Of a stretch of DNA of 64,000 nucleotides, positions 1-34,300 are shown in pieces (position 1 is the stretch's first letter; each line of letters begins with the position of its first letter). The DNA lies in contig CM114271.1 in NCBI GenBank assembly GCA_050084515.1, forward strand, positions 44,454,001 to 44,518,000. Direction: 5' to 3'. Source of the DNA: Blasia pusilla (lineage: Eukaryota). The position numbers and the translations under genes were made by a program. Below the pieces are notes generated by a model. The model saw only the letters and a list, made by a program, of their open reading frames with translations, did no database searches and had not been told where the DNA came from.

Positions 1-121
1 AAAAGAACACAATCCACAAGTCCAAAAACATATTCCAACAAACTTTAACAAACACCATTATGGGTTGAAAAAATCTCGTCCTTTATTACCTCCGAAGGAA
101 CCTCGAAAATGTAGATTTCAC

Positions 122-5850: not shown

Positions 5851-5860
5851 CCTATTTATA
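5851..5860 (-). promoter_or_regulatory. Putative TATA box of the ParB-MTase gene
   Basis: TATAAATAGG on the minus strand ~250 bp upstream of the first coding exon and just downstream of the palindrome array. Confidence 0.5.
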
Positions 5861-5949
5861 CTTTTCTAGCCGTTGGGCTGACCGTTGGGTCCCATCGTCC
5901 TTTCGACGGCGACGTGCCGGAGGTTACGGAAGTCCGAAGGTGAAAATTG

Positions 5950-8790: not shown

Positions 8791-9597
8791 ATTCCAACGG
8801 GAGGAGACTGAGAATGAGAATGAGAATGAGAATGAGAATTTTTAATTTATAGTGAATAGGAAATGATACTCTCTGATGATTTTTTTCTTGACAAGATGAA
8901 TTCGGTGGGTGACATTGTCTGACACAATGGATCCAATTCTGTAATACATTCAATTCTGTTGCAATATGTTACCGGATTTGGGAAGCAGAGGGTTGCGCAT
9001 CACACTTGGAACCCGTGGGAGTCCTGGTAACTCAAAAATTACTCGAAGCTAACCAAAGCCTGCAACCCGTCGGCTTCGGACGGGTTGCACGCTTCTGCCA
9101 AACATTGTCGAAGAGATGGCACTCATGGAGGGCCACAACGCCCCAAGGATTCCACTCTGCCGATTGCGGACAATGGAATACGTCCGCAAAATTCAGTCCG
9201 ACGAGGACATCGCGAAGCTTAAACAATCAGCGGCGACAACATCCTACGTAGACAACTTTCCTCCCTTCTATGTTCAGCCTTACGACGAGCATGGAACCCA
9301 AGCTCTGGTTACCGAGGAGGACTTGGAAAAGCTCGACACATTCTGGAGGATGCGAGACCAGGATTTCACAAGGCAAGTTGAGGGCACGGAATTCAGCTGG
9401 ATGAGGAATCTAAATTTCTTCATTTGGGATGGAAATCACAGGTTCATGGCGTGGACCAAGTTTGCGGAGGAGCGGCCCAACTCATTGGAGGCACATTTTT
9501 GCGTGAAGGCAGTGGTCCTTCACCCATTCCCTCATCACATGGCGACGGTGGAGATGGCAATGCATGCCATAAACACGTGAGTATCTTTAACACTTGC

Positions 9598-10321
9598 GCA
9601 ACTCGACGGGACGGTTGTTGGGATGCTTTAACACTTACGCAACTCGTCGGACTCTGACGAGTTGCTCGATTGATGAATGGGTTAGGTTTGTTTTTGCCAA
9701 AAGCAACTCGTCGAACTCCGACGGGTTGCTCGACTCGACGCTTTTTCGGATGTTTTTTTAAGAATGCAACTCGTCGGACTCCGACGAGTTGTTCGATTGA
9801 CCATAGATTGAATTGTTTTTTGGCCCAAAGCAAACCGTCGGAGTCCGTCGGGTTGCTCGACTCGCCGCCTTGTCATGATGTTTTTTGAAGAATGCAACTC
9901 GTCGGACTCCGACGAGTTGTTCGACTGACTGTAGGTTTAGAAGGTTTTTTCCCCAAAGCAACCCGTCGGAGTCCGACGGGTTGGTTGCCTCGAAACTGTT
10001 TTTGGCCGAAATCAACCCATCGAAGTCTGACGGGTTGCATTTGGAAGTTGGTTCCCCAAATTTCGCGTCAAATTGCAAGTTTACATTCAATTGCGCAACC
10101 TGTCGGACTCCGACGGGTTGCTATGTTCACGTTAGTATGTTTAGTTGCACAACCCATCGGACTCCGACGGGTTGAAACCAGGCATTAGCAAATCTGAATG
10201 CAATCCATCGGACTCCGACGGGTTGCATCATTTAGCTCGTTGCTAGAATCCGACCTTGAGCTGTGACGACCCGTCGGAGTCCGACGCGTTGCAGGAACCC
10301 ATGTAATTTCCTGACGGGTTG
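9598..10321. repeat. Intronic palindrome cluster, longer than its left-arm counterpart
   Basis: A dozen or more copies of caaCCCGTCGGA(c/g)TCCGACGGGTTG after the donor gtgagt at ~9577. Confidence 0.9.
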
Positions 10322-12458
10322 AGTTTGGATGTGCAGGATTGTATCGAAGGGGAATGTCACCCACCACTGGATCCAGGACTGTGATCGGGTGAGGAAGGTG
10401 CTTACGACGCACCCGGGAGAGTTCAAGGGGTTCTTGGGCGATGCCCTTGTCAATCAGATGCTTGCAAAGGGTGCTCAGATTAAAAAGAAAACTTGGGCAA
10501 ACAAGTTTATTTCCCAAGATGCAGCCGTAACCATCCTTTGCTGGTCGAAGATTCAGGCCGCGAAGAAAAGCGCTGACCGAGCCGAGCGAGGGAGAAGGTA
10601 TCTCGTCGAGCGCAGTAACAAATTCATCCAAGCCGCAGATTCGCAAAGAACGAAATACACGGCGAGCAAGATGCAGCGATACCTCAGCATTCTTAACCCC
10701 GAACTTGGTCCGGAGTTCTACAAGGAGCTGAAGGCGATTATCAAGCGCCAACGGATTGGGGAGAAAGTGTCCCTGGATTGCATGCATCGGTTTGGGTTGT
10801 CTGGCATAAGCGAGTTTAGGAGGATCCGACTGATGAAAATCAGTCTCGAGGGCACAGAGGCCGTAAGAGAGCGCACACCATCTCCTCGGGTGTGTCCGAT
10901 CTAGTGATCTCCCACCGCTACGCGAATGGTCGTTCCGGGGACGCGTTATGGTTATCGGGAAGTCCTTTGGCCGATACCGCAAGCGGAGCTCGAAGATTAG
11001 AGCCCATCCCGGATGAAGCAAACCTTGAAAGTTCTGGAGATTTCAAGGTTTGGCTCGACGACATCCGGGACAAGCTAACCAAAAACCCAGGATTCAAGAC
11101 CATGTTCAAGGTTTGCGTCCTCCCTCACGCAGAGCTTGACAAAGAAGTAGAGGGGAACAAACGGGATCAAGCAAAGAAGAAGCGAGATCTACAAGAGAAG
11201 ACGGCCAATTCTGTTCGACTAAAAGCTACCCAACGGATGGTCTTCAGGTACCTCGTCCAGTGTAAGAATGCAGGTACGTGGGGAAAATTACCGGTAGCCT
11301 TGAAATTGTGGGCTTCGCCACCGGATGCAGAGACATTCTCCATGTACGACATGGAGATGGGGCAGCACATGTCCGATTGGGAGGTGGAGAATTGCCCCAT
11401 TTGGTTCGACTTCAACGACCCTGAAGACATCACCGATAAGGATTTACGAGTGCTTCATGATGCAGTGGCCTCAGGACAAGACGACATCCCCAATTTCGTC
11501 CAGCCTGAAGACTTCTTCGGAGGAGATGCAGAAGAGCAGCCCACGAGACAGTACCTGAGTTGGCTTCAAGGTCCGTCTGACCAAAGACAAATCTAAATGG
11601 TCTCAAAAGGCAAGGCGAGGGGAGTGAAAAATTCAGAGGCCGAGTCTTCCCAAAGAGAGGCTGAAGATTCAAGGCCAGAGGCGGAATCGTCTGGGCGAGA
11701 GGGGAGAGAGGGTCGGACCAGGTCCTCGGAAAAAAAAATGCCACCAGAGTCTGAGGTCATAGAGACCCCGACAAGTCGTCCGCAGACTCGGGAGAAGCGG
11801 AAGCGAGAGGTGCGAGGGTTGTCCCAAGGAGAATACAGTCCATCATCCTTGGGAAGACACAAACAAACAACGACTTCGGACAAGCGCCCTCCTTGATTCA
11901 CTCCTTTACTAGATGAGTGAAGAGCTTGATTCTCAGCGTCGACACCGACCATCGATAAATTGACAATGCTGGGACGGAAGCTCCAACGAAACGGGCACGC
12001 TGCCTGGACGGTGAATGGAGTGGTCGAAGAGGTTGCGGTGCATCTCTTGATCGCTGATCTGCCCTCGGGGTTGTGACTTTGGGGCGAGAATCCGTCGGTC
12101 GAGGTACCTGAGTGGATTGTGCCGCTCTCTTATGACCAGATTGCGCTATTATTCTCCTTTGCGCACGCCTATCCGAGTGACAGGGTCGCTTCTTGGTGTT
12201 GATGGAGGGAGCGAGGACGAGCTCTTCAACCTCCAAAGTCGCCAAGAGGTCGCTAAAGTGGAGGACGGCGCAATCGTGGATCATAAAAAACGAGTACCCA
12301 CTCCGATCCGCGACGAGTCAGATTCGGGTAAGGCTCAATTCCTGTACTGTAATCTCAATTATATTTTAATGATGTGCATAATGAGTGTTCATCTCCGTTG
12401 AGTGAGTATAATGAATGTCAATCTCCGCTGGCTTAGAGCAGCCCATGCTCGGCTGAGA

Positions 12459-12721
12459 GCAACCCGTCGGTTTCCGACGGGTTGCATCTTTCCCACATAC
12501 ACAGGGAAAACCGCGGTGTAACTGCAACCCGTCGGAACCCGACGGGTTGCGCTTGCTTTTGGTTTTTCCCGTGTTTTTCCGAAAGTCGCAACGTCGATAG
12601 CGACGGGTTGCTCACGGACAAAAACAACGGAGCCCGACGGGTTGTTTTAGTCCCTGACCAACCCGTCGGAAGGCGACGGGTTGTTCCAGGACAAAACAAC
12701 CCGTCGGACTTCGACAGGTTG
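12459..12721. repeat. Intronic palindrome cluster (mirror of 1514-1833)
   Basis: Copies near 12460, 12524, 12588, 12659, 12697. Confidence 0.9.
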
Positions 12722-13536
12722 ATCCAAAGTCAGTAATTGAAAAATCTTCTCTTAAGCCGGCTTCTTTAGTTGCTGACATTGTTTCCAAAGTGCTGATTTA
12801 CGATGGACCACTCCTACGTATCGCTGCGTTCGCCCGAGCACAATTTCCAGGTGTTCAAGATCCACGATCATGTGGATCCATGCTCAGATGGGTACAACTT
12901 AGATAGTTTGTACAATTCCCCCCCGAGAATTTACATGCAAGACATTACCCCACTTCTGGGAGGAAGGGAAAAGTCGCCAGCCCTGATCCAAACGCTCATT
13001 GAGCTCTGCTCAAGGCCGGGTGACTTGGTGTTCGACTTAGTGGGACTTTCAGGGCAAGTATCAAAGGCGCTGGCAGAGTGGCACGAACATTTCTCGCCTC
13101 GAGGGAAGGCAGAATCGCTTGACCTTTGCAAGGAGGCAAAGGCAGAATACAAAAGGCTCGTTGGGGCGTACAACTCTCCACCGAAGCCGAGAGCTCCGGT
13201 TCCAGAGCCACCCTTGGTAGTGACTCCATCGTCACTTCCAACGATTCCGAAAATTGGGAGGGCAAGGCCGAAAGTAATTTTGCAAGAGCTCTCGGACGAT
13301 GACGAGTGAGTTCAAAGAACTCAATGACCCAGCTTGACTGCAGCGTTTGGAGTAGGGAGTTTTTTGATGATGAGGCAAAAGATTTCATAGAATAGATCAA
13401 ATGTATAGTTCCAAGCTTTTTTCAGATGATATAAAGCAGAAGATTTTTTGAACGATGGTGGTGCTTGTAAAAGTTTGCTCAACATTTTTTGTCTTTTCGA
13501 ATGTGATCGTCTATGTACTCCGCGGACTTCTATTTT

Positions 13537-14590
13537 GCAACCCGTCGGATTTCTCCTGCTTGCAACTTTTCACTTTTTGACCACTGTAACCTGTCGGATT
13601 TCTCCTGCTTGCAAATTTTCACTTTTTGACCACTATAACCTGTCGGATTTCTCCTGCTTGCAAATTTTCACTTTTTGACCACTGCACCCTTTTTACCACT
13701 TCCAAGAAACTTGTCGGATTCCAACAGGTTGCCTGATCGGACTCTTTCCGTGTTGGTCCAACTTAAGAGGCAGTCTGGCGGGCTTCTTCCCTTGGCACCT
13801 TCCCCTCAACTCGTAAAGGCAGGCGTAGGCTTCTTTTCTTCTCTCAGACGTGTTGGATTCCTACTACCTGTGCGATTGCTATAATGGTATTACCGGGGAC
13901 AGAGCACATATTGATACTGGATGGGTGTCACATTGCAGAGCGTACAAGGTATACTGCCGAGGAAGGCGGTGGGACTCGAATCAGGTAACATGGGACCGTT
14001 ATGGTGTACCTAGGGGGGGGCCAAGGCTCTCGAATTCGCCAATATTTTTGATCCCCGTCTACAATCAGCCAGAGGAGCCACTTGTATCCCAGGACATTCC
14101 TTTGGTACTGTCACCGAGGAGAGTTAGGAGTAAATTTGTAGATGAAGAGGTTGAAGAAATCATAGACAAGGTCAAATGTACATTTCCGAGGTTCCTTCGG
14201 AGGTAATAAAGGACGAGTTTTTTCAACCCATTATGGTGTTTGTAAAAGTTTGCTCGAATATTTTTTGGGACTTGTGGATTGTGTTCTTTTAGCTACTCAG
14301 AATTACAATTCTGCAACCCATATGATTCCGACGGGTTGCAACTTTTTGCTTTTTGCCCTTTGCAACTTTTTTTTACCATTTCGGGCAAGTCAGCCGGATT
14401 CGACAAAGTTGATCGCTTGAGTGATCGGACTCTATCCCGGTGAGACCAACTTCTGACGCATTGTGGCGGGCTTCTTAACTTTTGGCTTGTTCCCCTACAT
14501 TCACCAAACCAGTTGTAGGCTTCTTTTCTTGTCTAAGATGTGCAGGATTCCTACTACATGTCGGATTGCCATTTCGGATTCCCAACCTGT
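13537..14590. repeat. Further degenerate palindrome copies and a ~49-bp triplication
   Basis: aaccYgtcggatttctcctgcttgcaa..tttcactttttgaccact three times at 13537-13685; degenerate copies at 14313-14590. Confidence 0.75.
13850..14206 (+). pseudogene. Unknown coding segment, copy 2 (mirror of 122-385)
   Basis: Same CRGRRWDS...RSKFVDEE peptide. Confidence 0.4.
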
Positions 14591-17198: not shown

Positions 17199-20100
17199 AT
17201 GCAATGTTGCGGTTGCTGTGGCTCTGTACTGTATTGCACACCACCCACTAGAATGTACTTAGTTAAATCTGACCACTACCCACCATACGCTCTATGCAAT
17301 GGCTTCCTCAAACCTTATAGTATTCCAACTCCTAGCGAGTTCTATGCATGCGATCTGTGCACAACTTCTGAGCTACCTACCATGTTAAATGTGTACATGA
17401 GACTAGCTTACATCAGAGAAATACTAGCTTCAAACCCCCTCCAACTTCAACTACTATCCATTGTTGATTCAAGAATTGGAACCGTTTAAAAATTCAATGG
17501 ATTTCACAAAGGATTCTTTCGGCCAACATCCCTTTTAGACTCCCCCCTCGTGGCCTAGAATATGTCCATTCCATAAAAACCCACCCTAAAATCTAAGTAG
17601 GACAACGTGAGTAATGTCCTTGCGACTAACTTAGCTATAAATAATTTATATAGGGATTAGAAGTGCTTACTAGAACTTCCCAACCCTTCAACGGGACTTG
17701 TAGTACTTCCAGCAAATTTTGTTTCATCAATTTTGAAAAAGAGCCGACAGAAAGGACAAATAACTCACAACATATCCTTTAATCCTTATCAACTAGAACT
17801 TAATGTATAACAAGATGTCACGTACTCTCTCCCAGTTCAGCGTGGCCATTCATACGATATATTTGATAATGGGAGTGTATTCCTTCAAAGGCAAGCCTTC
17901 TCTAGAGAATCATTCTTAACTGACTCATCAGGAAATTCAGTAGACAAAAGATGACAAATTGAAATAGATATCTTTCCCTTCCTCTTCCTATATCTCATCG
18001 GATATTTTCAATGTTCCCTATCTTTCTCCGACTACAATAGGCAACGCTCTAAACAACTCTTTAGTGCTTTCTCCCTATACAAACCTTACTCCCTTGTCAC
18101 GCATCAACTATGTCAATTGATTTCACTATGCTCTTCCTCAAGCTCATTCATACTAAATAGAGACCTAGATAAACTAAGACGTGACAAGCCAGACTTACCA
18201 GAGGAAGACTTGTACCGTGAGCTGCCTAGACATTCACTGAGTCCGCAAATCCCAAGTACCCTTGGTTGGCATAGAAAACATATTAAAGATATTAAATCAA
18301 TGGTCCAAAAGTGGGGCATGCCTCACTTTTTCCTTACACTTACATCTGATGAAGTCTCTTCAACAAAGTGGCCAAAAATAGATGCAATTGAAAAAGTCCT
18401 CCATACATTTAACCCCAAGTTTACTTGGCGAGACGCACCTGCTGAATGCACACAACTATCTCATATTAGGCTTCATACATTCCTATCTTAGTTCATATTT
18501 TCAGGCCCACAAATTATGGGCAAGGTACAAGACTACATTCTCAGATATGAAGTGCAAGGTAGGGGTAGTCTTCATTGCCATATGATTTTTTGGATAGATA
18601 TTGTAGACGTAGATCGCATTGCATTACAAATTTGTGCCTATCTACCTAACCCACCTACACGACATCCACAGACTTGCAACACAAATCTTGAATCTGATCC
18701 TCATTCATTAATGTATACCTATGTCACAACAAAACAACTCCACATTTTTAAAGAAAGTGGGTGTATTGTCAAGAAAAAGTCACAACATTCATATTGCAGA
18801 CTTGGCTTTCCACATGATGTAAGTCTCCGGAAATTCCCCTTCATTCACCCTCATACTAACATGTGGACATACTTCAGACCATTTAATATTCATAGAAATG
18901 TCATTCCATACCATCCCCTCGTTCTTCTCTTTGTGGGGAGCACATATGAATCTCCAACGGGTTACATACACTGAGTGGTCTTTTTACCTCATCAAATATG
19001 CACTTAAATCAGAGCCTACAGGTTCTTTGGATATTAACACACAAACAACACGTTGTCTAGGGCTAGATAGTTTAGATGAAGTTAAGCTTAAACTTATTTC
19101 AGGCATTGTCTTAAATCATTTTGTATCATCTACAGAAGCTTCTCTAATGTCCTCACAAATTCCCATCATATTCAGACCCCTGTCTGTGAAATACATTGAC
19201 TCTAATCCGTCATCCAGAAGGACAACCTCCATTCACCGTGTTCTAATATATTGCAGTAAACCAGAATCTCTTGAATTAGAAACATTTGTCCACTATTGGT
19301 CAAATTATACTACTCTTAGGAAAACTAAACAAAAACTTCCAACCTCAGCAATTGGCATGGATTTGTTGACATGAATATTTTCTCCAAAACATCCATACTT
19401 GTTCGTTTTACATAATTCTATCCACTCTATCAATGGAATGAATTCTTCTACACTCAACTTCTTCAACACGTTCCTTTTAGATCGGACAATGATCTCATGT
19501 CCTCTCATTCACAACATTGGACATACCTCCATGAGTGCCTTTTGTGTGGCATCATCAGTGACATGGCATCCATAGATACAATTATAAACACCCATGCTAC
19601 TCTAAACCTTTGGAGTAAAACACACACAACATAAAATTTAGCTAAGGCAGCATATATTCTCAAGCCATTACTTGATGATAGACCTATGGATACTATGATA
19701 CGATCAAACACAATATTTTCACATACTACTAATTAGACACAAGAACCATTCAGTGTAGATACTACAAAATTGAATCATGAGCAGCAACAATTATTCCACA
19801 AATTCAAATCCAAGTTCTCTCGTCTAATTCTCCTACAAGGCTGCGTTTTAGGGTTTAGGGTTTAGGGTTTAGGATATTAAGATATTATTCATCAATTTTA
19901 TTGTCATTATCGGACTTCCTTAAACTTGCATGTCCTTCTAGCAGCTACCATAGGCATTGTTGCTGTTAGATTACATTCTCAGGCATCTATAGTCCACTCT
20001 GCATTTTGCATACCTATCCGTGGTGAAGTTCCTTACATGCATGCAACTTCTGAGGCAAGTATGAAGTTGAGAGAATCTAAAGTGATTATTATAGATGAGT

Positions 20101-21063
20101 GTTCAGTGTTGACACCACAATTGTTGCAAATAATAGCGATGAGATCAAATGAAATAGCACTTATATAGTATGTGATCCATTTGGAGGAAGGTTAGTAGTT
20201 TCAGTTGGTGACTTATCTTAGTTACATGCTGTTTGTAAACATAAGACAAACACTATGTGTTCATCTTGTCATGTACTTTCTTCATAATTGATGTACTTAG
20301 TAGAGAAGTATGAGCTTCACACATCTATCAGACATTCCAGGGACCCTCACTATTCACAATTTTTGAATGAAATCAGACAAAGACTCCCTTCCTCCCAACA
20401 AATTCATGAGTCTCTTGGCTGCTTTGTAATTGAGAATGAGGCAATTGATTTCCTTACTGAAGACACAACCATTATTTGCTCTCATAGCTCAAACGTTAGA
20501 ATATTTAATTCATTGTGCTTGAGCCATTTTTTGGAGAGGCTTCTATTCTCAGTACAGATCTACTCACAAATGCTCCGCATTCCCTAGAACTAAAATCATG
20601 GTTGCTTGATCCAGACTTCCATCAATTACCTTCTTTTGCCATTGGTTCAAAGGTTATGCTCACGTCCAATATTAATCTAAAAGTGCACGCTGCCAATGGT
20701 TCTCATGGTGTTATTGAAGATGTACACTATAAGGATGGCATCTTAAACTCTATAGTAGTTAAAACTACTACGTCTAGTCATACATTATCTGTAACGAGAA
20801 AATATTTTAGCTCCTTGAGATATGGTTCAGATAGGAAGTATTACAAAAAAACCTTTCCACTTACCTTGGGTTATGCCATGACATGCCACAAGAGCCAAGG
20901 CCTTACAATTAAAGGTAGATGTCTGCTAGTGGTTAAATCTCCTTTTGCACCTGGTTTAGTGTATGTAATGCTCTACAGGTCTCAAAGCAGAGATCAGATC
21001 AGAATTCTTGGCGATTTAGCTCCTTCTGATTTTATCACATTTGGTCAAGATTCACACTCATGA
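17199..21063 (+). mobile_element. Helitron Rep/PIF1-helicase pseudogene
   Basis: Rep motifs GMPHFFLTLT, YEVQGRGSLHCHMIFW, CRLGFP, GAHMNLQRV, YLIKYALK; helicase motifs LAATIGIVA, IIIDECS, FPLTLGYAMTCHKSQGLT, PGLVYVML; stops and frameshifts. Element ends not identified. Confidence 0.92.
19847..19873 (+). repeat. Interstitial telomeric repeat (TTTAGGG)x3 + TTTAGG
   Basis: tttagggtttagggtttagggtttagg read directly. Confidence 0.9.
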
Positions 21064-21863
21064 AGATATCTGCAATCTTCCTAACATTATGATTCCAGAA
21101 TGGCATCTCACGATTCGTCGAGGTCAAAAGGAAAGTGAAAATCAACCTCTTCCACTTTGAACCTCACTTACATGCAGCAAGTACACCAAACACAAGGCTT
21201 TACAGCAAACACAAGTGACTCAGTTGCACTTCCTGTTCGTCCACCATCACCAGAGGCAACCAATTATCAGGCAATTCAGCGTATATCATTACCACTTCTT
21301 GTGCCACATAAATACTAAATGCTTATACTAACACTTCTACCGACCCCAATGAACTACATGGACTTTGCCAACATGATTCTGCACGACATTCAGAAAATAA
21401 CAGAAACATATGCACCAAAGTACACTCAATCCACGGAGAATCAGAGGAGGTTTTGTGACAACTTGGGCCTCTGTCGAGCCTTTTGGGAAAATGGCATAAC
21501 TAAACGTCAGATACACGAAATCATCACACAAGGCAAGAATTGGGATGAGAAATTCCGTCTCCACAACAAAGATGCACCAGAAACTAGTGAGTTCACTCCT
21601 AAACTCCACTTTTCCAACAGATGTTTTACAACTTTCAAAGCATATTGTTTATCCATTCTTACTTATTTTTCCTTTGTACACTTTTCAGGAATTTAGAAAG
21701 AGGCTCTCCTCCACAAAAAAGTTGAATTTAATGAGACTACCCCTTACACAATCTCATGAAAATAGGCTATTTTCCATAGCCTCTTCAGGCATAAGGCTAG
21801 ATTAGCTGCGCACTTTGCGCCAGTTTCATTTGCCTTTAGCTATGGTTATAGACTTCACATCCT

Positions 21864-22369
21864 TGTCACGTCTTTTAGGATAGATCGGTGAGATCTAGTA
21901 GAGCGCCTTTGTGAGTAGTGGAGGAGATGCTCAATAAGTCGAGGATGACCAACTGAGGCCCCAGGAAACGCGAGAGAGCAGGTTTCCCCTTCGTTTCAAC
22001 TTATTTAGAGCCAATTGAGGAACTTACTATTTTAGGTAAGTACCATTTTGAGTATATGATCAACTTTATATTTTTGTTAAGTGGCCATTGACCTCTTACA
22101 TCAGGTCAAGAGCCAAGGAGGTGACTTGGGAGCATAGGTTTCCATGGAGAGGGGAGGGGTATACCTCAAGGAGAGAGAGAGCTCGAGAGATCATTCTCTC
22201 TTTGTTGAACGTCTTGGCATGAGGCGGCGGAGCTATGGTCTTGCTTACCTTGTGTGTGTAATCCAAGCCTCTCATTTGGAGAATGGGTTTGGTTTGACAT
22301 TGAGAGAGACATGTGAAAGTGCACATATTTTGAGAGCTATCGTGTTGAGAGAGATTGGATCTTATTTTA
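21864..22369 (+). repeat. Terminal repeat A1
   Basis: Matches 30913-31272 (partly deleted there) and the rc of 58937-59449 over its length. Confidence 0.9.
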
Positions 22370-24104
22370 CAAAGAGAGGATGAATGAGTGAGAGAGTTTC
22401 ATGGGGGAGCTCGCTGTTTGCTTGATGTTTGGTGTAGGTTGGGAGACCGTGTTCCCTGCTTCATGGCTCATGGGAGTGCTCACCGAAGCAAGAGTCGTGT
22501 GAGTTTGTTGTTTTGCTTTGCTATTTTTTTGTACAGGAGAGTGCCAATCGGAAGCGCTGCCCAATTTTGGATAGGAATTGAGTATGGGGGCGGATTGCTC
22601 CATGCCAATGCTCTCGGGAGCACCATGTAGCTTGCTGATTTGTGTTCTCACAGGTTTTATATTTTTGTTGGGAGAAATCAGTGCAAAAGTGCTGCCAAAT
22701 TTTTTGTAGGAGAAAGAGACGGTGGGCTTTACAAAAATCCCCGTCAATTTTATAGACCGTGCATGCTGTGCAAGTTGTGCAAGAAACGGTGCACAATTTG
22801 GAGTTGTGAGCAAAAAGTTATAGTCAATCTTGCAAAACTGCCATTGCTAGGCAATTTTTAGGGTTAAATTGTTCAAACCCGCCGCCGCGCCGGCGGCGGC
22901 CGTCGCCTTCATAGTCATAATCAATGGTCTGCCATCAATGGTCAACCTTCATTGTCGATGGTCAACTGTCATCGTCAATGGTCCATCGTGCACCGTCCAC
23001 CATCCACCGTCGGCCGCCTCTGCCGCTTAGCGCTGCTCAGAGCCGCGTTTGGCCATTGTCCACCCTTGGTTGCCATTGCCGCCATTACGGAGTGGAGGGT
23101 CTTCCACGACGATCGTTGATTCTTTGACTTGCGCCGCTATCACGTACTTTGTTTGGCCGCCACCGTCATCATAATTTTTTCATCAACCAATGATGGCAGA
23201 TGACCTCGGGTTATGATGTTTGAGTTTTCATTTCATGCTGCTATATTGTGATTGGTAGCGGCTTGACGACAATCGAGTACCGTGCCGTGCTTGGTATTGT
23301 GATACCCGTAGCCACAACGCGTCGCCAATTTTTGCGCCGTTCCGCTCATGGCCACACCGCATCGTCTGAATCGCGGAGCCACTCCTTCACTAAGGATAAG
23401 AGCGTGTGAATTGCTGATTGAGGAGGGTATCTTGTCGAGTGCCACACCCCATTCTCGAGTTCCGTGCCATTTGTAGCCATTCGGTACCTCCCGTGCCACA
23501 CTAGACCGCTAGACCTGCAATGCACATCTAGAAGGTTAGAGCAGCGTCAGTATGAGAGGAGTACACCTTGCTGATTGGAGGAGTTGGCTTCAGGACCGAG
23601 TTGGGGTCGAGATTTGCAGTTGCCAATCGAGGAGTGACATCGACATTATTGTCAAGTTATCCATCAGGTCTCTTATCCTACACGTGTGAGGGATTTCCGG
23701 GTATTAGAATATTATTTGGGATATTGGGTTTTGTGCTGATGCTGAGAGCATCGATGAAATATGGGTTTAGGGGACATAGACCTGTGTGGGATGTATAGAG
23801 TTGAGGATGGTTTGTCGATGAGACGATGGATCAGTTGATTTGCCGTACCACGCTGCTTGTTGCAGCACAACACACGTCTCAATAAGAGAGTGTAGATTGA
23901 GTGCCGCATGTTTAGTTCTAGTCATTGAGGGATTACTTGCAAGATTGAGGGTGATTGTGTGAGAGGGGCACGAGGGCCATCACGGCATCATTTTGGGATT
24001 TTGAGAGGCGAGGTAGTGGACCTGAGAGTAGCTCCGGAGGGTTTACCTGAAGTGGTGCGAGGTTTCAAGGGTCTCCACGTGAGAGACCTTCTCGATCTCC
24101 TTTT

Positions 24105-25920
24105 GTGTCGTCTTCAGACGAGGGGGAGCCTATAGAGGAGTGTGTTAGTGATCCATTGTACACATTGAGTGGTCCTACTAGTTGGGTGTACGAGATGGAC
24201 GACCGGGATAGAGGACCGCGTCGATTTTCAGATGTTGTAGGCACCATAGAGCTACACGACTTCATTATAGAGTTTAGGAGTTGGTGTGACTCACAGCGTG
24301 CTAGGAACTCTAGAGAGTTCAACACGTTTACAATATGGAATGGTATGTTCCAACATTTAGAAGGGACGCCCATGGACGATTACCATGAGTTCTCCCACAG
24401 ATATGCCCAGGAGATTGAAGCATGGTGACTCTACTATGACCCACACTATGTATCATGGACGGAGCCGTTCTTAGATGAGGAGGAGGAGTTAGGAGAGGCT
24501 ACTTCCTCTTCCACAAGTGATATTTTAGGAGGGGTCACTCGCACTGGAAAAATTGCACCGTCTAGGCGGGTTCGTCCCAAGTTCAACCCCGTGGTTGAGT
24601 TCTTTGTTGAGTTGAGGGCGAGCTATCAAGGGGTACGGATGGAGAAATTTCGAAGTAGCTAGTCCGGGTGGGCCTAGAGATCATGCACCAGGTGGTCCAG
24701 TTGGGGGACGAGGAGTTGGAGTTTCCCGACATGATGGTGGAGCTGCTCGTGGAAGAGGTAGAGTCCCACCACCTAGACGTGTCGAGGGAGACGCCGGACG
24801 TGAGGCTGGGATGGCTGCTTAGATACAGTAGCTACAGGAGCAGATTTCCGCTATGGCATTGAGGTTACCCGATGCCACATCTATGGCATCGACATCATAT
24901 GGAGCAACCACAGATATGGAGGATCGTGGTTGGATGTGCGGGGTTGCCCAGATGGAGGCCGCCGCAATTTTGACGCGTGGAGAAGCCGTAGAGTTGGATC
25001 CATAGCGAGGGAAAGCCAGGAAACAGACCAAGCTTCCTTGGTTTTTCACGTTGTCCAAGGCAATGAGGACCCCATCGATGGGTCGTGATCAGAGTTCCTG
25101 GAGAGTTGGTGATGTTGTTGGTGTGCAGGCATAGAGGATGATGGGAGAAGCGAGTGCAACAACTCCTATTGCCGATGCTCATGAGGGGCATGTGTCGAGC
25201 ACATTGTTGGGGGTGGCCATCATTGTGTACCGCGCTCTTTTATTTTCTGCTTCCGATGTTATGACGTCGGGAGGTATGCCCGTCGAGGTTTTTTGGCTAG
25301 CCGCTACGCTATATGAGCGTGGAGTTGGAGTTCTTGCATAACGTTCATAGGTGATTGTAGAGGAGGTGATGGATCTGCCCTTGGAGCGGATGCTCAGGTT
25401 GTCCACGTCATATTTATGGCAGGCTGCGACTGCTAGAATGGCGGAGATGCTCGATAGATATGCGATAGAGCGTGCCATGGCTTCTAGTGTTGTGTCATTG
25501 GAAAACCGGGGAGAGATCTTCCAGACGGTGAATCCTAGAGGTAGAGATTTTAGTCCGCAGCGCGTCTTGTTGGATTGAGGAGCGCAACCCCTGATATTGG
25601 GAAAAAACGTCATTTAGAGGATTGGGCTTGACGAGAGCTGATGTGGAGCGTTGTCCATTCCGGATACAGACATCCTTGGATAGAGCGAGTACCACACAGT
25701 ATATCACTTGACATGAGGTTGTGGTGAGGATTCGCCCGGGACATCATACAGATGAGTCCGTGGTGCGAGCCAAGGGGATAGTGACTGATGTAGAGTCCTA
25801 TGACGTCTTGGTTGGTGGAGCAGTGCTATACCCAATGGGGTTTTCCCTGGATTAATGGGAGGAGTCAACATCCTATAGACCAATAGGGCGCCTTATCTCA
25901 TTACCCATTCGATTCACAGG
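24105..25920 (+). pseudogene. gag and aspartic protease remnants
   Basis: Gag-like ORF 24105-24428, RGG-rich stretch, protease motif RVLLD*GAQPLILG at ~25560 (intact VLLDSGAQP in the 50.5-kb copy). Confidence 0.7.
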
Positions 25921-26269
25921 TGCAGTGATCGAGTGACGACCTTGAGAGATGGTGATCTTAGTAGCATTTAGCATTGCCATCACTTGGCCTAGTGATTTGA
26001 TTGAGAGACATGTCCATGCAGAGGATACTCCCGTTCTTGACATTTCTATGGAAAGGAGTGTCATGGTAGCCGCATCAGTTTGTGGAGGACAGGTGCCGCT
26101 TTGGGGCTCGATTGAGAAGCTTCGACGCTTAGCCACTGAGCATGTGCACACCGCGTGGAGCGAGACATTTGCACTAGAGTGTGACGGGTCAGAGGAACCA
26201 CAGGTAGGCAGGAGTGCTACTATGATCCCTTTGGACACCACCCCGATTGTGTGGTGCATCTTAGAGAAG

Positions 26270-27210
26270 GGTATTCGGGTGTTGGATCTCTTTGGAGGGA
26301 TCAACACTCGGTTAGATGTTGTTTCGTACGCTGGAGTACGCGTGCAGCAGTACGTGTATGTGGAGATTGATGATGTTGTGAGGGGCGCTTTACTTCACCA
26401 TGTGGTGCTATTACGCCTCCATTTTCCTGACTTGTTGTCTGCGTTCGCCATTTAGGGTTCCCAGAGTTCCCTACCGAGGGATATTTCATTGTTGGGGGTG
26501 CAAGACTTGGAGCGGGTAGGGACCATAGACTTGGTCATTGCTGGTTGGCTGTGTGAGGGCCAATCGAGTGTTGGACGAGGTAGCGGGTTAGCTGACACTC
26601 GGTCCAGGTTGTTTTGGGAGATGATATGGATCTTGCGACATTTACAGGAGCATCCGTCTTCTTCTCCATCAAACATTTTGGAGAATGTGCCAATTTTGGG
26701 CGATTCGAGGTCCCGTGTGGTGACGAGTGTACAACAGGTGCGCGCATGGATCGGTACGGCAGTGTTGTTAGATGCAGCGAGTGTGGGTTCACAAGCATAT
26801 CGCCCGCGTCTTTGGTGGACCAACTTGGTACCACATGAGGTATTGCGGAGGGCTTATGCAAGAGTGGAGCATCCCTTGGATTTGTTGATGGATTCTATAT
26901 TGGATCCGGGCCGTCGATCACAGGCAATGAGGCACGATGATCAACCTCCGTTGACTGTGGTCAACAGGATTGGCATGCCACGAGCAGCCTTTCCCACATT
27001 GGTGAGTTTTCGCGCTTCCTGTGCATTCAAAGAGGCCAGACCTGGCTTGGTTTGGGATGACCAGGTACATAGGTTGGTGGAGCCCAACGCCAATGAGCAA
27101 GAGCGAGCGATGGGATTCCCCACAGGAGTGATGGGAGTACCGTCACTATCGGAGGCATGACGACGTCATGTCTTGGGTCAAGTGATGGATCTGAACTGCT
27201 TGACATGGAT
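26270..27210 (+). pseudogene. DNMT3-like C5 cytosine methyltransferase domain within pol
   Basis: Motif I IRVLDLFGGI, II YVYVEID, IV IDLVIAGWLCEGQS (PC mutated), VI ILENV, VIII AYRPRLWWTNL, IX EQERAMGFPTG. Confidence 0.9.
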
Positions 27211-27529
27211 TTTCAGCTCAAGGGTAGTTGAGTAACGTCGTTTGAGGATGCAACAGATCACAAAAGTTACATTGGCGGGCCCCATGCCTATCGAGACGGT
27301 TGAGGCAGTGGTTGGGGGCGAGACTCGAGGAGATTGATATACCAGGGGTGATCGGGAGAGACACCCTTGGACTTCTTGAGATATTTTGAAGGTACGCCAA
27401 GAGATGATAGCCACAACATTGAGCATGCTGCTGACTACTGCACGTGGAGATAAGAGTTCTATTGTTCGAGACGGGGTTGCACCATAGCAACCACCAACAT
27501 CCACATTAGAGAGTCCTACAATAGTCACG

Positions 27530-28975
27530 ATGGAGACTTGGAAGCCAGATATGGGCCCTAAGTTGATAGGAGAAGAGGGGCGTCGGATACACCAGTTCCT
27601 TAGGAGTTATAGGAGTTGTTTTGCATTTAGTATCCATGATTTGGGTACTCTGAAGGGTCCAGGGATCTGCATTGAGTTATCGAGTGACACGCCAATCTTC
27701 CAACGACCCTAGAAGTACAATAATATGGAGAAGGCTCTGATTCAAAGTAGTAGCCAAGACTTGGTTAGAGTAGGACTAGTAGAGATGTCGCATGGAGAGT
27801 ATGCATCTGCCACTGTCATGCCCGCCAAGAAGGATGTGCATGGCAACTAGACGGATAGGCAAATGTGTGGAGATTACCGACCTATCAATTGGCAGACAAA
27901 GGCCGATAGGTATGCCATGCCCATCCCTGAGGAGATCTTTGATGCGATTGGGCATGCAAAGGTCTTCAATTCATCGCATTTGCGAGTCGGATACCATCAG
28001 CTGCCTATCAAATTGAAGGACGGGCAGAAGACGGTATTATGGGGCATCGATCCTCACGAGAAGGATTGTTTGTACCAGTGGCGGTTATTACCATTCAGGT
28101 TAAAGAATGCCCCGGTTGAGTTTCAGAGGATCATGGATAGGATCTTGGCAGGTCTGGATTTTGCTAGGTGTTATATTGATGACATCGTAGTCTTTAGCGT
28201 CACAGTTGAGGAGCATGAGCGACATCTAGAGGAGATGTTTTGTCAATTGCAGTTACATGGGTTGAAGCTACATCCAGGCAAGTGCAAGTTCTTCTATGAC
28301 CAGATTGAGTACTTGGGTCATACAATACACCCTTGGGGCCTTGGTGTGCAACAGATGAAGGTAGAGGCTATTTCACGCATTCCACGCCCTACACATGTGA
28401 GTCGAGTTCGTGCATTTATGGGATTGGCAAACTTCTATCGACGGTACGTCAAGGGTTTCAGTTCCATTGCGAAGCCGCTAACCTTGATGACCAAGGTGGA
28501 TCAAGAGTGGCATTGGGTGGATGAGCAAGAGACAACATTTTAGATGCTCAAGGACAGATTGATGTCCGCGCTCATATTGAGGAGATCGATCAGGGATCGT
28601 ACTTTCTACTTGCATACCGATTAGAGCATGTTGGGGCTTGGAGGTGTGCTCACCCAACATGATGATGATGGTAGAGAGTTCGTGGTGGCTTATGCTAGTC
28701 GCTCGAACAACGTTGCAAAGGCGAAGTATAGCTCGTATGAGGGTGAATGCTTGGTTGTTGTGTGGGTTGTCGTTCATTTCAGATGTTACCTATTCGGCAA
28801 TCCCTTTACTATCATTACTGATCATCAGCCACTTAAGTGGTTGATGGAGTCCGATAAGCTTATAGGGAAGCTTGCAAGGTGGGCTCTTTTGTTGTAGGAG
28901 TATGACTTTGAGGTGGTGCATAGACCTGGGACGCTCAACCAAGATGCAGATGGTTTGAGCCGTATACCATGCGCG
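27530..28975 (+). pseudogene. Reverse transcriptase and RNase H
   Basis: MCGDYRPIN, PFRLKNAP, CYIDDIVVFS; LHTD*S.LGLGGVL, YSSYEGECL, TDHQPLKW. Confidence 0.95.
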
Positions 28976-29329
28976 AGTTAGCGAGATGCGATTGGAGCTT
29001 GTTGGCATGGTGAGAGTGATGAGGAGTTGGTGCCAAGATGGCATGCGTCAGCCTATTTGGGCTTGTTGGCTATGGAGAGCCAGATTGCCGAGACTTTGAT
29101 GGCGAGGTCTGATGGAGAGTCCTTAGATCCAGAGGCCGATAAGGAGACGAAAGGTGGCCGAGATATTCACGACGATGGAGTGGTCTTGGAGTACGCATCC
29201 ATTGTGCCTGCGAGCACAATGGGTGCTAGAGAGCGGGATCGGATCCTACAGCGAGCTAGACGGTTCCGGTGGGAGGGGACACATATGTTGCGAGTGTGGG
29301 AGGATGGTAGAGTGCGTGAAGTGCCTCAT

Positions 29330-30602
29330 CCTTCATATAGAGCATGTTTGGTGCGTCATGACCACGAGGAGTTGGGTCATTTTGGAGTGAAGCGGACGTA
29401 CAACTTGCTCTAGATTCAGTATTGGTGGCAAGGCATGCAAAGTAACATTCAGTAGTTTGTTGCTAGATGCATGGTGTGTGATCGAGTTCGAGCATCGTTC
29501 AATGGTTTGAATCCACAGTTGCATCCACTTCCGATCATGGATTTAGGTTATAGATGGAGTTTGGATTTTGTAGGACCTTTGTCTTTGACGAAGGGCCATA
29601 GTCGTTATGTGTTGGTGATGGTGGAGCACTTCTCGAAGTGGATAGAGTTAGTTGAATTGCTTGACAAAGCAAGTGAGGGAGTAGCGTATGCCTTCCTAGA
29701 TCGAGTTTTGAGTCATTACGGCACACGAGCTGAGGTGTTGACAGACCAGGGTACAAAGGTTCGAGGGGAGTTTCAGGCCTTGTGTGATCAGGCACTCATC
29801 GACCACCGCAGTACTTCGTGAGATCATCCTGAGGCGAATGGACTAGCGGAGCGGGTTGTGTAGATGGTGAAGAGAGGACTAAGCAAGTATGGCTTGCAGA
29901 GAGGTCACCTAGGATATTCGGACCTTCAGTTGCCGTGGTTGGCGATGGGATATAGATTCACCAAGGAGGTATCCTTAGCGTCTTTCTCACCGTACTTTTT
30001 GCTTTATGGCCGAGAGCCAGATTTACCTACGGCCATTCGTCGAGATGTTGGTGAGGTGTTGAACCTTGATGACCCTTATGTATGGATGCGAGCATGTTCT
30101 TAGAGGGCTTAGTTATTTCGGAGAGTGATGCCCATGGCGTTTGAGAACTTTAGTGATTGCGCAACATCGGGATACGTTGAGGTATGCGACTATTCGGGGA
30201 GGTGGTTATCAACATACTATCCGGAGGTTTCATCAAGGAGACTATGTCTACTTGCAACAGACGGTACTCACGATGTTGGATGTTACTGCAGGGCACACCA
30301 TCTTGAGAATGCGTGAGGTTTTGCCATCCAGTATTCTCTTATTGGAGAGAGGCAATGGTATGGTTTGGAAGGACCATGTGCGTAACTATGCGCCATGTCA
30401 TCTTTCGAACATTGACGGTACAGTTGATCTGAGCTTAGCAAAAGTTCTTGTAGGCTTGCGGTGTATGTTGTGTTGTTCGGCCCGTGGTGCAGCCACTATG
30501 CTAGTCTGTGATGGGTATTCGAGAGGATGGCATATGGCTTGTTTGATGCCACCTCTCACTAGGGTTCCTCATGGACGATGGATGTGTCCCAGATGTACAT
30601 AG
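29330..30602 (+). pseudogene. DDE integrase with C-terminal PHD finger
   Basis: HEELGHFG...CMVC, RWSLDF, VLTDQG, HPEANGLAER, SPYFLLYG; PHD CMLC...MLVCDG.SRGWHMACL.PPLTRVP.GRWMCPRC. Confidence 0.93.
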
Positions 30603-30769
30603 AGTAGGTAGTTCTATATTCCGACTTGTGTCTGTGACATGGATGATAAGAAGGCGACTAACGATGGGTCCACATGAGCACTCGACCTTCTTGCTCTTAG
30701 CGTCTGAGAGATGTATGTCATGGTAGGTAGAGATAGATGACTATCTAGAGTTAGAGGGATCTAACCACT

Positions 30770-30780
30770 AGCTAGGGGGG
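30770..30780 (+). other. Polypurine tract
   Basis: agctagggggg directly before repeat B1; same at rc 59582-59592. Confidence 0.7.
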
Positions 30781-31394
30781 TGATTAGAGATATTTTGGTA
30801 CTTCTTGTCTCGTTGTTTGGATGTCATGAATTAGCATGGGATCATGCGTGTTTGTGTGTGTGTTCGGTGACAACGATGTATATTGTGTAGCGATGTGTAT
30901 GCGGAGGACAACTGTCAAGTTTGGAGCCATATTGAAAAACTTACTATTTTAGGTAAGTACCATTTTGAGTATATGATCGACTTTATATTTTTGGTGAGTG
31001 GCCCTTGACTTCCTACATCAGGTCAAGAGCCAAGGAGGTGACTTGGGAGCATAGGTTTCCATGGAGAGGGGAGGGGTATACCTCAAGGAGAGAGAGCTTG
31101 AGAGATCATTCTCTCTTTGTTGAACCTCTTGGCATGAGGTGGCGGAGCTATGGTCTTGCTTACCTTGTGTGTGTAACCCAAGCCTCTCATTAGGAGAGTG
31201 GGTTTGGTTTGACATTGAGAGAGACAGTGAGAGTGCACATATTTGAGAGCTATGGTGTTGAGAGAGATTGGAGATATTTTGGTACTTCTCGTCTCGTTGT
31301 TTGGATGCCATGAGTTAGCATGGGATCATGCGTGTCTGTGTGTGTGTTCGATGACAGCGATGTATGTTGTGCAGCGGTGTGTATGCGCACGACA
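30781..31394 (+). repeat. 3' terminal block B1 (30781-30910) - ac - A2 (30913-31272) - B2 (31266-31394)
   Basis: B1 and B2 are ~130-bp direct repeats ending in GACA; A2 starts TGTCA and matches A1. Confidence 0.9.
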
Positions 31395-34300
31395 TTCTCT
31401 CAAGCATCTCACATGATAACTAGAATGAAGCTAGCAAGTTCTAATGGTGAACTTCCTGAATTTACCCCACGAGGATTAGATGATGATACTACCCTCCATG
31501 TCCCTATCTTGTCTGACTTTGAAAACTTCAATGTCAAGTCAAAACCCAATTCTTCCACATCCCCAATTGACCTTACCACCTACGAGCGTGAAACTCACAT
31601 CACATCTCTAGCAAAACGCAAGTGTGCTTGATGCTCTTGAGGCATCAATTTCTTTCATACACTTTGTAGTTTGTAACTTTAAATGTCTCTACTAGGCGCT
31701 TATTCATTTCTAACTTATCCACATTCTCGTCATCATGTAGGCAATGTCTTGGTTTCAATGGATACCGCCTATCCAATGTAGACCATAATCTCACAATCAA
31801 AGCAATCATCCCTACTATCAATAGACATTAGCATCCTATCATGTGCCAATTTTTTTGTCATCTCTCTTCAAGAGATATTTTGATTGCACAAATTTTATGA
31901 TGCAAATGCAAACATCTTTCAATTGGTTTACTCATATCTTCAATTTTCTCATCACTTCATTCAATCTACTCTTTATTTCTTATTATTCTTCAGTATGCAA
32001 CAATGCATTTCTTAATTTATGCATTTCTTATTCATGTGTGCACTAAGTATTGCTTCTTTTCACTTCAAGTAATTGTCAGATTCTTTCAATTCCTTATTGT
32101 ACTAATGTTATGCTATCTTTTTCAGTAATCTCATCTTACTTACCCTTCTTAAGTACACTATTGCAGATAAGAACAAGGCAGCCGTGCCGTCGTCCCAACT
32201 TCAACCATACTGCACTTCCACCACCATTACTACATGTTGAGTTCAACACCAACACTTTTGATCAAGACCAATCAAATTCTGAGACTTCCACTGTTCCACT
32301 TCACGTGTACACACGACTTCTACACAAACTGGATATGCTTCAAGATGACAAGTCTGCTCTCAGTTCGGATATCAAATCTCTATCTTGCAGTGTTAACAAT
32401 GCTTTACTCAGGGCTACCAAAGCTGAGTCTATCCATACTACTTACAAGTCCCATCTTACAAGTGCATATGAGTACTTTCACGACTTTATGAAAGAAACAA
32501 CATACCTCATTGAGGGGAACCCTAAGTTAGAACTTCAAGCTGCTTTGATTCAATCTCTGCTACGCACTTTCATTTCTTGTGATTAGTACAACCATCTCCA
32601 TATTTTTACTTTTTGCTGTTGATTATACTTCTGGTCCATTCAACTTTCATCTTATGTATCTTCTACCAACTCGATTGATATGAGATTTGGAATACAAACT
32701 CATACCTATGTGTCATTTTAAAAAGACATTTCACATTTTGCATTTCTGTTATGAAATATATTTTCCAACACTTTCATTACTTTCTACTGTACATATGCAA
32801 CTCAACCACTCTTACTCTTATTTACAATTGTTTCTATTTGTTCCCTGCTACCAGCTGGTATAATGTACAAGATGTGCACACTATATTATATTCAGGTCCA
32901 TGTCCATCACTAAAATGCATACAGACTCCTTTCACAACAATAGGTCTTTCAGCAATAGGAACATATTCCATTCCTTGCTTTGTTATGTTAAAACAAGATA
33001 AATTCACACGTTCATACACAAATTCAAACTTCTTTTGGGCATTAAGTCTACTAAATTTCATATCCATCAATAGGTCTGCTTCAAATACCAAACAAGTGAG
33101 ACCTAACTAAACCTGCCAACATATGCCATTACACAACACACCCTAAACACTCCACATCTCTTTAGCAACATAACATCACCTTACTCTTATGTCTCTAATA
33201 GGCTCATTTAACTACTATTTCTTTACATTCAACTACATTTCAGATCTGACCGGCACTTATATCAAATATATAATCCGCATGTTGCATTAAGCACACTACA
33301 AATATATGACACGTTTTTAATTCCACCATTCCATAATTTTACTTCTTTATTAATCCATACAACTACTAGCTCCAATTACAAATATTCTTACAAACCACCA
33401 CTTTTCATTTACCTTTCCGACTTATCTATCTTTCCGACTTATCATCTAAATGTACGCTACCAACTTCCACCCAAATATTCAATCTCCTTTCTTTCAAGAT
33501 TGACACCCCAACCTAAATCAAGTCGTCCTACTTTTACTGTAGCTTTAGTGGCCGCACACTTGTTTGTCTTGGAGAATTGTGTTCTCATAGAGGTTGGCAC
33601 CACAGGAATGGACACATCCGTCCGGTGTCTTCTCGTAGCAATGGGTATTGAAAGGTCAGAGGCAATACGGTATGGTTACGGAACTAGTAACCAGATCCAT
33701 TTACAGTAATGTTAGTCTGTTAAGTGCGGCAGATTTGAGGGCTTCGAGAATCAACAGAAGAGGAGAAAACTTGGGGTCTCGGTGACTCCGGGAGGCCAGA
33801 AGGTTTGGGAACCGGCCCAGATCTGCAAGGTGAGAAATGGCTAATGTGGAGGAAGAAAGTTGGCGAGTTCACCGTTGATTTCGGCTATGGAAAAAGCACG
33901 GGGAATTATCTGGGTTTCTGAGTCGAGGTTGCTTTGGATGTTGGGATTCAAGATTCTGAGTTATCTTATATTTGTTCGACGATGGAGAGGGTTAGAAACC
34001 TGCAGTACTAGGAGACTGTCGGCAAAACTATGATTTGTATTTCTTCTGAGGATCCATGGCTTAAAATATCATGTGATAGGATTGTCCTGCCAGGCTTTCT
34101 CTGAAGCCCGAATATTGAAATATTTCTCTGATGATAGGTTTACGCTTGAGATCAGGCGGAGGTATTGGTTTGCATAATTTAATTAAAATTGCGGATAAAA
34201 AGTGGGATCATGAAACTTGAAATTTTGGCTGGAAGATTCAATGAGCGAGAAGGAGAAGGCCAGGGAGATTTAGAGTCACTGATCCTTGAATTCATCTGTC

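Follow-up and report, generated by a model that had tools for sequence, protein, structure and literature searches.

A Gypsy-DNMT3 retrotransposon of Blasia pusilla with split direct repeats and a conserved palindrome inside its predicted long terminal repeat

A 64,000-nucleotide (nt) stretch of the Blasia pusilla genome (GenBank assembly GCA_050084515.1, contig CM114271.1, positions 44,454,001 to 44,518,000 of the forward strand; hereafter the window, in whose own numbering positions are given) carries at 21864–31394, on the plus strand, a retrotransposon with a DDE integrase and split direct repeats in the order A1, internal region, polypurine tract (PPT), B1, the dinucleotide AC, A2 and B2. 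As a whole, the evidence is probably best explained by a Gypsy-DNMT3 element whose reverse-transcribed long terminal repeat (LTR) is B-NN-A, where NN is a 2-nt spacer, whose integrase sites lie inside that LTR, and whose integration substrate contains two LTRs head to tail. The layout is already known from one figure legend of 2018 and we do not claim its discovery; what we add is the placement of the PPT and of the primer-binding site (PBS), the termini and target-site duplications (TSDs), a conserved palindrome, the exact joint between the unique 5′ (U5) and unique 3′ (U3) regions of the LTR in inserted copies, two inserted forms, the breadth of the lineage and transcript evidence.

Repeat search and BLAST within the window matched A1 (22004–22359) to A2 (30920–31272) at 93.8% identity (E 2e-152), and B1 (30782–30910) to B2 (31266–31394) at 90.7% identity (E 6e-44). 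In full, A1 is 505 bp long (21864–22368), with its first bases, TGTCACG, forming one integrase end and its last base fixed at 22368 by reads from other copies; in the reverse-transcribed LTR it would be the 3′ part, that is the end of U3 followed by the repeat region (R) and U5. A putative PBS stands immediately 3′ of A1 (22369–22378), followed by a leader and decayed gag/protease region (22379–25945) in which the window copy has no Pfam match. At the other end of the internal region the PPT, a G-run (AGCTAGGGGGGTG, 30770–30782), adjoins B1 (30783–30910), which would be the start of the reverse-transcribed LTR (the 5′ part of U3) and ends GACA. Then come the 2-nt spacer AC (30911–30912; read joints have AC in 109 reads and GC in 90), which is the centre of a CA-NN-TG palindrome, and A2 (30913–31272), with first bases TGTCAAG and ~130 bp deleted relative to A1. 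The last repeat, B2 (31267–31394), is joined to A2 by a U5|U3-type junction, written A~B below, and ends CGACA at the second integrase end. All these features are on the plus strand, and the element is bordered by TCCT (21860–21863) and TTCT (31395–31398). The ~130-bp deletion of A2 is private to the window copy, as is the loss of 15 nt where A2 meets B2, a slippage deletion at a point where ATTGGA is common to both; most host copies have a full-length A2, as seen in DNA reads with a joint from 22003 to 30920 and a loose end at 30920.

By its domain content the element is a decayed Ty3/Gypsy-type retrotransposon, with a pol of protease, C5 DNA methylase, reverse transcriptase (RT), RNase H, DDE integrase and PHD finger. 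Pfam matches on the plus strand, interrupted by many stops, comprise a DNA_methylase (C5) region with one stop (25946–27157; PF00145, E 2.6e-6, above the curated cut-off), then RVT_1 (E 4e-20), RT_RNaseH (E 1e-32), Integrase_H2C2 (E 6e-14) and the rve core (E 1.5e-10) over 27488–30100 with ~10 stops, and a C-terminal PHD finger (30129–30599; PF00628, E 2e-7) that is frame-shifted relative to the integrase. In an intact relative, L001, Asp_protease_2 lies upstream of the methylase, and the order protease, RT, RNase H, DDE integrase is that of Ty3/Gypsy pol. The integrase is of the DDE type, having both rve and the H2C2 zinc domain, and among the D,D(35)E residues of the family alignment D1169 and D1229 are invariant and E1264 nearly so. 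A search of all six frames of the element (E ≤ 0.01) and of six long open reading frames (ORFs) of relatives found no tyrosine recombinase (PF00589). An earlier note, made from the letters of the window alone, had described a DDE-integrase element with A...PPT-B-NN-A-B repeats; its repeats, its termini and the layout of a second copy hold to the base, but it overlooked the DNA methylase and PHD domains.

That second copy, which the note placed near 58810–59590 with the same 3′ arrangement, lies on the minus strand at 58807–62810 and consists of RT, RNase H, integrase and PHD, PPT, B1, AC, a full-length A2, a 9-nt U5 tail and B2. Its B2 occupies 58810–58937, A2 runs to 59449, the spacer is at 59450–59451 and B1 at 59452–59580, followed by the PPT, so that its 3′ end has the layout of the first copy. 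The two copies are 83–91% identical (83–85% in the internal region), and homology ends at 62810, equivalent to position 27474 of the first copy, immediately upstream of RT, which means that methylase and gag have been lost or moved and that the copy is 5′-truncated or interrupted.

A protein search with the window pol gave 216 matches, many with the same set of methylase, RT, RNase H, integrase and PHD. The best named matches were Marchantia polymorpha proteins at 57–65% identity, with further matches in Closterium and Sphagnum, and the Klebsormidium nitens protein KFL_009030040 aligned across 87% of the query with 38% identity (E 7e-239). A quick maximum-likelihood tree built on the region spanning RT to integrase (27 rows, 4 of 31 having been dropped as partial: L048, P0038, P0013 and P0044) placed 15 family rows on one side of a branch with a Shimodaira–Hasegawa-like approximate likelihood ratio (SH-aLRT) support of 100, and 12 other Gypsy-like matches on the other. 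KFL_009030040, which has the same domains as the window pol, fell inside the family clade, and from these domains we infer that it is a copy of KnitGypsy-Dnmt3. By its domain set and these relatives, the window element belongs, in decayed form and in another host, to the streptophyte 'Gypsy-DNMT3' lineage.

The layout recurs among relatives, which we took as the best 80 of 248 confirmed metagenome loci (303 candidates) and labelled L001–L080. Self-BLAST gave a B1/B2 pair just 3′ of pol in nine of the 53 loci having at least 250 nt there (L006, L009, L020, L021, L028, L063, L064, L078 and L080, with L006/L021 and L063/L064 as near-duplicates). Many of the 53 have no repeats; most loci other than these nine stop shortly past the junction or have uninterrupted ORFs, which would be expected of short-read assemblies broken at identical repeats. 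Both window copies and 24 of the 80 loci carry a CGACA/TGACA-NN-TGTCA junction 3′ of pol. In each of ten elements examined closely the PPT adjoins B1, B ends CA(C/T)GACA, a 2-nt spacer follows (mostly GC; also AC, AT and GT) and A starts TGTCATG, or TATCATG in L063/L064. Across the family the length of B ranges from ~11 nt to ~180 nt, and the subfamilies with this layout have merely 35–57% protein identity to one another.

Among the relatives are giant elements of ~16 kb on aquatic metagenome contigs (L036–L039, L042 and L054; e.g. L039 11640–13020 and L038 1395–15637), with a B of ~11 nt, the PPT GGGTGGGGGAA and then TAGTCACGACA-GC-TGTCATG. Their ORF1 encodes 2,738 amino acids (aa) with a zinc knuckle as its sole recognised domain, and the methylase lies between RNase H and integrase, not before RT. 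Both L037 and L039 are circular permutations (internal-PPT-B-GC-A-internal), which could reflect 1-LTR circles or cycles created in assembly by identical repeats. A G+C-rich relative, L048 (1975–2101 and 9189–9320; 43% identity to the query protein), is probably green-algal; it has a 5′ A1 with an unrelated flank and a CGACA-GC-TGTCATG junction, and its contig breaks off within A2.

Twelve 5′ ends are visible (the window element, L012, L028, L032, L033, L040, L048, L064, L068, L076, L077 and L080), and at none of them does B stand after or before A1. The 5′ end is A alone and the 3′ end B-NN-A~B, in place of the two identical complete terminal LTRs of Ty3/Gypsy elements, and the result runs contrary to the case that the earlier note had set as its own refutation, a 5′ LTR of A+B in most copies. 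The chromosomal ends are TGTCATG...CACGACA, and a 4-bp TSD flanks all eight elements with both ends visible: it is perfect in five (L080 CCAC, L028 TCTC, L033 TACA, L076 ATGC and L077 CATC) and agrees at three of four positions in the window element (TCCT/TTCT), L064 (ATTA/ACTA) and L012 (GGTT/TGTT). This tabulation of ends, which the note had proposed and which we ran on the window element and the metagenome relatives, thus gave TG..CA ends and a 4-bp duplication in 8/8, within the TG...CA termini and 4–6 bp TSDs of Ty3/Gypsy elements. Such ends and duplications are the hallmark of a DDE integrase, as opposed to a tyrosine recombinase.

A second inserted form, A1-internal-PPT-B followed by unrelated DNA and lacking A2~B2, was present at ten loci (L012, L015, L019, L031, L033, L052, L057, L069, L076 and L077), four of which show both ends with TSDs (TACA, ATGC and CATC, all perfect, and GGTT/TGTT). 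Nine elements are seen at both ends, five of the A2~B2 form and four of the form without it. The existence of A-internal-PPT-B copies with TSDs of their own would suit the idea that A2~B2 is a separate, internally deleted mini-element inserted beside a complete A-internal-B element. However, the 2-nt spacer is shorter than a 4-bp TSD, the TSD flanks the entire composite in L080 and L028, and the arrangement occurs at ~7 independent loci and in hundreds of host copies, and we give this idea scarcely any credence. The ~7 independent A~B junctions include a 17-nt filler in L028 and a ~147-nt deletion in L080. Matrices of identity among the B1/B2 and the A1/A2 sequences, compared within as well as between copies, are star-like, with no B1- or B2-specific signature and no clear within-element pairing either, and are weak evidence both ways.

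Immediately 3′ of A1 lie 10–12 nt with a complement midway along A, and the two sequences covary in three subfamilies. In the window subfamily the putative PBS ACAAAGAGAG (22369–22378) is complementary to CTCTCTTTGT (22196–22205); in the L028 group ACTCAAAGAACT after A1 pairs with AGTTCTTTGAGT in A, and in the L064 group TCTAGAAAAACT pairs with AGTTTTTCTAGA, the PBS lying 0–3 nt beyond the end of A1 in each subfamily. Over 11 A1 copies complementarity was 11/11 nt in five and 10/11 nt in four, and that of the window was reached by 9 of 500 shuffles. An exact-match search in the mutated A1 of L028 itself did no better than chance (417 of 500 shuffles were as good), and its relatives L012 and L076 have perfect matches. 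The pattern suggests self-priming of the Tf1 type, CTCTCTTTGT being where the transcript is predicted to begin. Since the PPT borders the start of B and the putative PBS the end of A, the reverse-transcribed LTR would be B-NN-A with an internal attachment site, a well supported prediction that agrees with the B+A unit of the earlier note, given a PPT adjoining B in 10/10 elements and a PBS adjoining A in three subfamilies. Likewise, the GACA-NN-TGTC inverted repeat that it pointed out inside this LTR matches the pair of chromosomal termini.

Reads of the same species label, from one DNA run (X14) and three RNA runs (X17–X19), were mapped to 21500–31700 at 85% likeness. Depth in the DNA run was ~1 in the flank and ~450–3,000 in the element, which indicates roughly 1,000–2,500 host copies. 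At least 757 DNA reads join the end of B via NN to the start of A, and at least 886 reach the start of A (21864) with unlike flanks (agreement 0.34), which puts the A copies bordered by host DNA and those bordered by B at about equal numbers, in line with the layout. A joint of 22368/22369 to the first base of B is carried by at least 545 reads; it locates the end of U5 at 22368, with the putative PBS starting at the next base, and bears out the earlier estimate of ~505 bp for A. This A~B joint places the last U5 base next to the first U3 base, as in the junction of a 2-LTR circle, and is exact in 443 of the 545 reads, with one extra A in the other 102. The same reads bear on whether this might be an ordinary element with A+B LTRs that lost B from its 5′ LTR and had part of B duplicated before its 3′ LTR. 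An A+B unit does have TG...CA ends, but the sequence next to A1 is PBS or leader in all 12 visible copies, the layout recurs across subfamilies as divergent as those above, and no joint of the B end to the PBS was among the 15 best of 260 joints (weakest 43 reads), against 545 and 757 reads for the real junctions. We therefore regard that history as extremely improbable.

Where the window copy and the other copies in X14 differ, transitions predominate, with C>T at 454 places, G>A at 502, A>G at 341 and T>C at 343, against 38–86 places for each transversion. The surplus of C>T and G>A is compatible with a heavily methylated repeat whose methylated cytosines have been deaminated.

Among the RNA reads the first mate lay predominantly on the minus strand, a strong bias that indicates sense transcripts. 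In X17, X18 and X19, respectively, 69, 130 and 84 reads cross B-NN-A, whereas 13, 8 and 9, of mixed orientation, cross A~B, giving a ratio of 5–16:1 compared with 1.4:1 in DNA. It thus seems that the majority of transcripts terminate within A2, in which case B2 would have no RNA template and would be rebuilt in each cycle from the B of the other LTR. These data bear on a DIRS/PAT-like cycle, in which a transcript would run from inside A1 to inside B2, the B1-A2 segment would act as a splint to complete a circular cDNA, and the PPT- and PBS-like sequences would be idle. The repeat layout is that of PAT/Ngaro elements (PMC4157794), and the same comparison was drawn by de Mendoza et al. (2018, Nat Commun, PMC5890265). 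Set against this are the lack of a tyrosine recombinase in the element's six frames and the six relatives' ORFs, the 4-bp TSDs and TG..CA ends, the G-run adjoining B1 in 10/10 elements, the covariation of the sequence after A1 with a site inside A, and the rarity with which sense RNA crosses A~B. Such a cycle is in our view improbable.

Under the Gypsy-DNMT3 reading with a B-NN-A LTR, reverse transcription would yield an LTR starting right after the PPT and ending right before the self-priming site, and integrase would join not the LTR ends but the half-sites ...CACGACA and TGTCATG..., which lie within the LTR, back to back with 2 nt between them. Inserted copies would consequently start at A and end at B, between 4-bp target duplications, and the GACA-NN-TGTC inverted repeat within the LTR would be the source of both chromosomal termini. 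The replication-competent inserted form would be A1-PBS-internal-PPT-B1-NN-A2~B2, that is one whole LTR, a U5|U3 junction and a further B. Because this B lies to the right of the right-hand LTR, a head-to-tail LTR-LTR joint is needed in the integration substrate, and such a U5|U3 junction is strongly implied; that the substrate is a ligated 2-LTR circle is plausible. The most economical substrate would be a 2-LTR circle cut at the palindrome adjoining the PBS. A linear molecule with B-NN-A at each end of the internal region, cut at both internal sites, would give A-internal-B, as would the cutting of a 1-LTR circle, and this product, having no 3′ R, should be unable to replicate. With the 2-nt spacer, one staggered cut after each CA would leave recessed CA-3′OH ends with 2-nt 5′ overhangs, like processed retroviral ends. 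Cleavage of the palindrome at LTR-LTR junctions of 2-LTR circles is described for the integrase of prototype foamy virus (PMC1180852) and reported likewise for HIV-1 integrase (PMC1905944).

Several observations weigh against this reading. A symmetric 2-LTR circle opened at either palindrome should produce the mirror isomer, A~B-NN-A-internal-PPT-B, as frequently, yet it is found at 0/12 visible 5′ ends and in 0/9 elements seen at both ends, and its absence requires an unexplained polarity. Of the earlier note's proposal, a 2-LTR circle opened at its second B|A site, the LTR-LTR junction is therefore the part that stands firmly; the circle is consistent with the data, the missing isomer counting against it. 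No circular DNA was observed, the permuted L037 and L039 being equally well assembly cycles, and the form without A2~B2 could have arisen through B1 x B2 recombination after insertion. Every copy with visible host flanks is decayed. The note had also placed the transcript start in A1 and its end in B1/A2; RNA that seldom crosses A~B agrees with the latter, but the one read-start cluster, at 22132 (6/18 and 9/14 molecules), is weak and lies 64 nt upstream of the predicted 22196. Finally, the read-joint counts are lower bounds drawn from the 15 best of 260 joints, and A~B copies with the 15-nt deletion map without a joint. The further proposition that integration from a head-to-tail LTR-LTR (2-LTR-circle) intermediate, by one staggered integrase cut at a built-in CA-NN-TG palindrome, is obligatory throughout the lineage, across its range from green algae to liverworts, is one that we consider possible but somewhat doubtful.

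The same B-NN-A LTR with internal sites could also acquire its U5|U3 junction from the reverse transcriptase, not from circle ligation. Having reached the end of A, at the right of the linear cDNA, the plus strand would jump end to end to the left, where the minus strand has its 3′ end, and copy B-NN; integrase would then process each 3′ strand at the outermost CA. With no such jump, A-internal-PPT-B would result. This route accounts for the polarity, the mirror isomer being absent at 12/12 visible 5′ ends, for the commonness of the form without A2~B2 (ten loci with an intact B end beside unrelated DNA, four with matching TSDs) and for an A~B junction that is exact to the base in 443/545 reads, with one extra A in 102. 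However, we know of no documented end-to-end jumps by Ty3/Gypsy reverse transcriptases at such efficiency. In addition, the filler in L028 and the deletion in L080, at two of the ~7 A~B junctions, look like end joining, later mutation being possible. We hold this route to be unlikely, albeit well short of negligible.

Elsewhere in the window, the region directly upstream of the element (17955–20165) has Helitron_like_N in two adjacent frames and a weak piece of PIF1 helicase, and the retrotransposon may lie inside or beside a decayed Helitron. A 381-aa open frame at 35807–36949 matches the TCF25 transcriptional repressor family (Pfam Tcf25, E 1.8e-86) and is probably an exon of a host gene. 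Positions 1–14000 have 48–52% G+C compared with 37–44% around them and contain many open frames of 90–400 aa on both strands, with zero Pfam matches at E ≤ 0.001; this region may be another, unrecognised repeat.

Split direct repeats are conventionally tied to tyrosine-recombinase elements, and DDE integrases to linear cDNA with two full LTRs. The Gypsy-DNMT3 lineage breaks the tie between split direct repeats and tyrosine recombinase, and it is both abundant in this host (roughly 1,000–2,500 copies) and widespread, with liverwort, charophyte and algal relatives. Standard LTR finders, which need two full LTRs and an adjacent TSD, will misannotate or miss it. If the proposed mechanism is true, the lineage would be a natural case of an old and largely abandoned idea, that tandem-LTR circles are integration precursors, and split direct repeats would follow from the position of the joining site within the LTR, whichever enzyme does the joining. 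The anatomy makes it testable whether an LTR-LTR junction serves as a productive integrase substrate in nature.

The closest described system is KnitGypsy-Dnmt3 of Klebsormidium nitens, for which the legend to Fig. 4c of de Mendoza et al. (PMC5890265) gives DIRS-like repeats with Gypsy-like domains, the DIRS arrangement being A-coding region-B-A-B. The two have in common a Dnmt3-type methylase inside a Gypsy pol and this A-coding-B-A-B layout; since that was in print in 2018, a split-repeat layout with a Gypsy domain set is not new, and any novelty, which the earlier note had kept conditional on comparison, does not lie there. They differ in host, the best named matches of the window element being liverwort proteins and its host genome much larger by read depth. 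As far as the consulted part of that paper goes, its account holds no PPT or PBS placement, termini, TSDs or mechanism. Our literature search found no other description of the layout, or of any mechanism, beyond the 2018 paper: a 2026 preprint just cites 'streptophytes (Gypsy-DNMT3)', and the accessible portion of a 2019 survey of plant LTR retrotransposons (PMC6317226) has no mention of PHD, methyltransferase, Marchantia or Klebsormidium.

The earlier note had also pointed to Troyka elements as having non-standard triple repeats. Troyka is likewise an aberrant Gypsy-like lineage, but is defined by CG..CG termini and 3-bp TSDs in animals (Kojima 2025, PMC12440569), in contrast to the TG..CA termini and 4-bp TSDs of the window family, and its abstract describes no split or triple repeats; termini, TSD length and animal hosts together rule it out as a comparison. 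With the tyrosine-recombinase elements PAT, Ngaro and TOC the window family shares the repeat order A1...B1-A2-B2 and the position of the B1-A2 junction downstream of the coding region (PMC4157794). Those elements encode a tyrosine recombinase, whereas the window family has a DDE integrase, with no recombinase found in the frames and ORFs searched, as well as TG..CA termini, 4-bp TSDs, a PPT bordering B1 and a putative PBS bordering A1. The 2019 survey (PMC6317226), in the part consulted, describes self-priming, by a PBS complementary to the element's own LTR and not to a tRNA, in Tf1/Sushi and predicts it in the plant element Tcn1. The putative PBS of the window family, complementary to a stretch of its own LTR, may act likewise; Tf1/Sushi and Tcn1 differ in having ordinary LTRs and a chromodomain.

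With retroviral 2-LTR circles, as far as the reports consulted describe them, the window family shares a CA...TG palindrome that integrase could cut to give processed ends. In retroviruses this palindrome arises only upon circularisation, at the joint where two LTR ends meet, whereas in the window family it lies inside each LTR. The spacer at its centre is 2 nt, compared with 4 nt at retroviral LTR-LTR junctions. Furthermore, the LTR-LTR joint of the window family, A~B, is a separate and non-palindromic site that is retained in the inserted copy.

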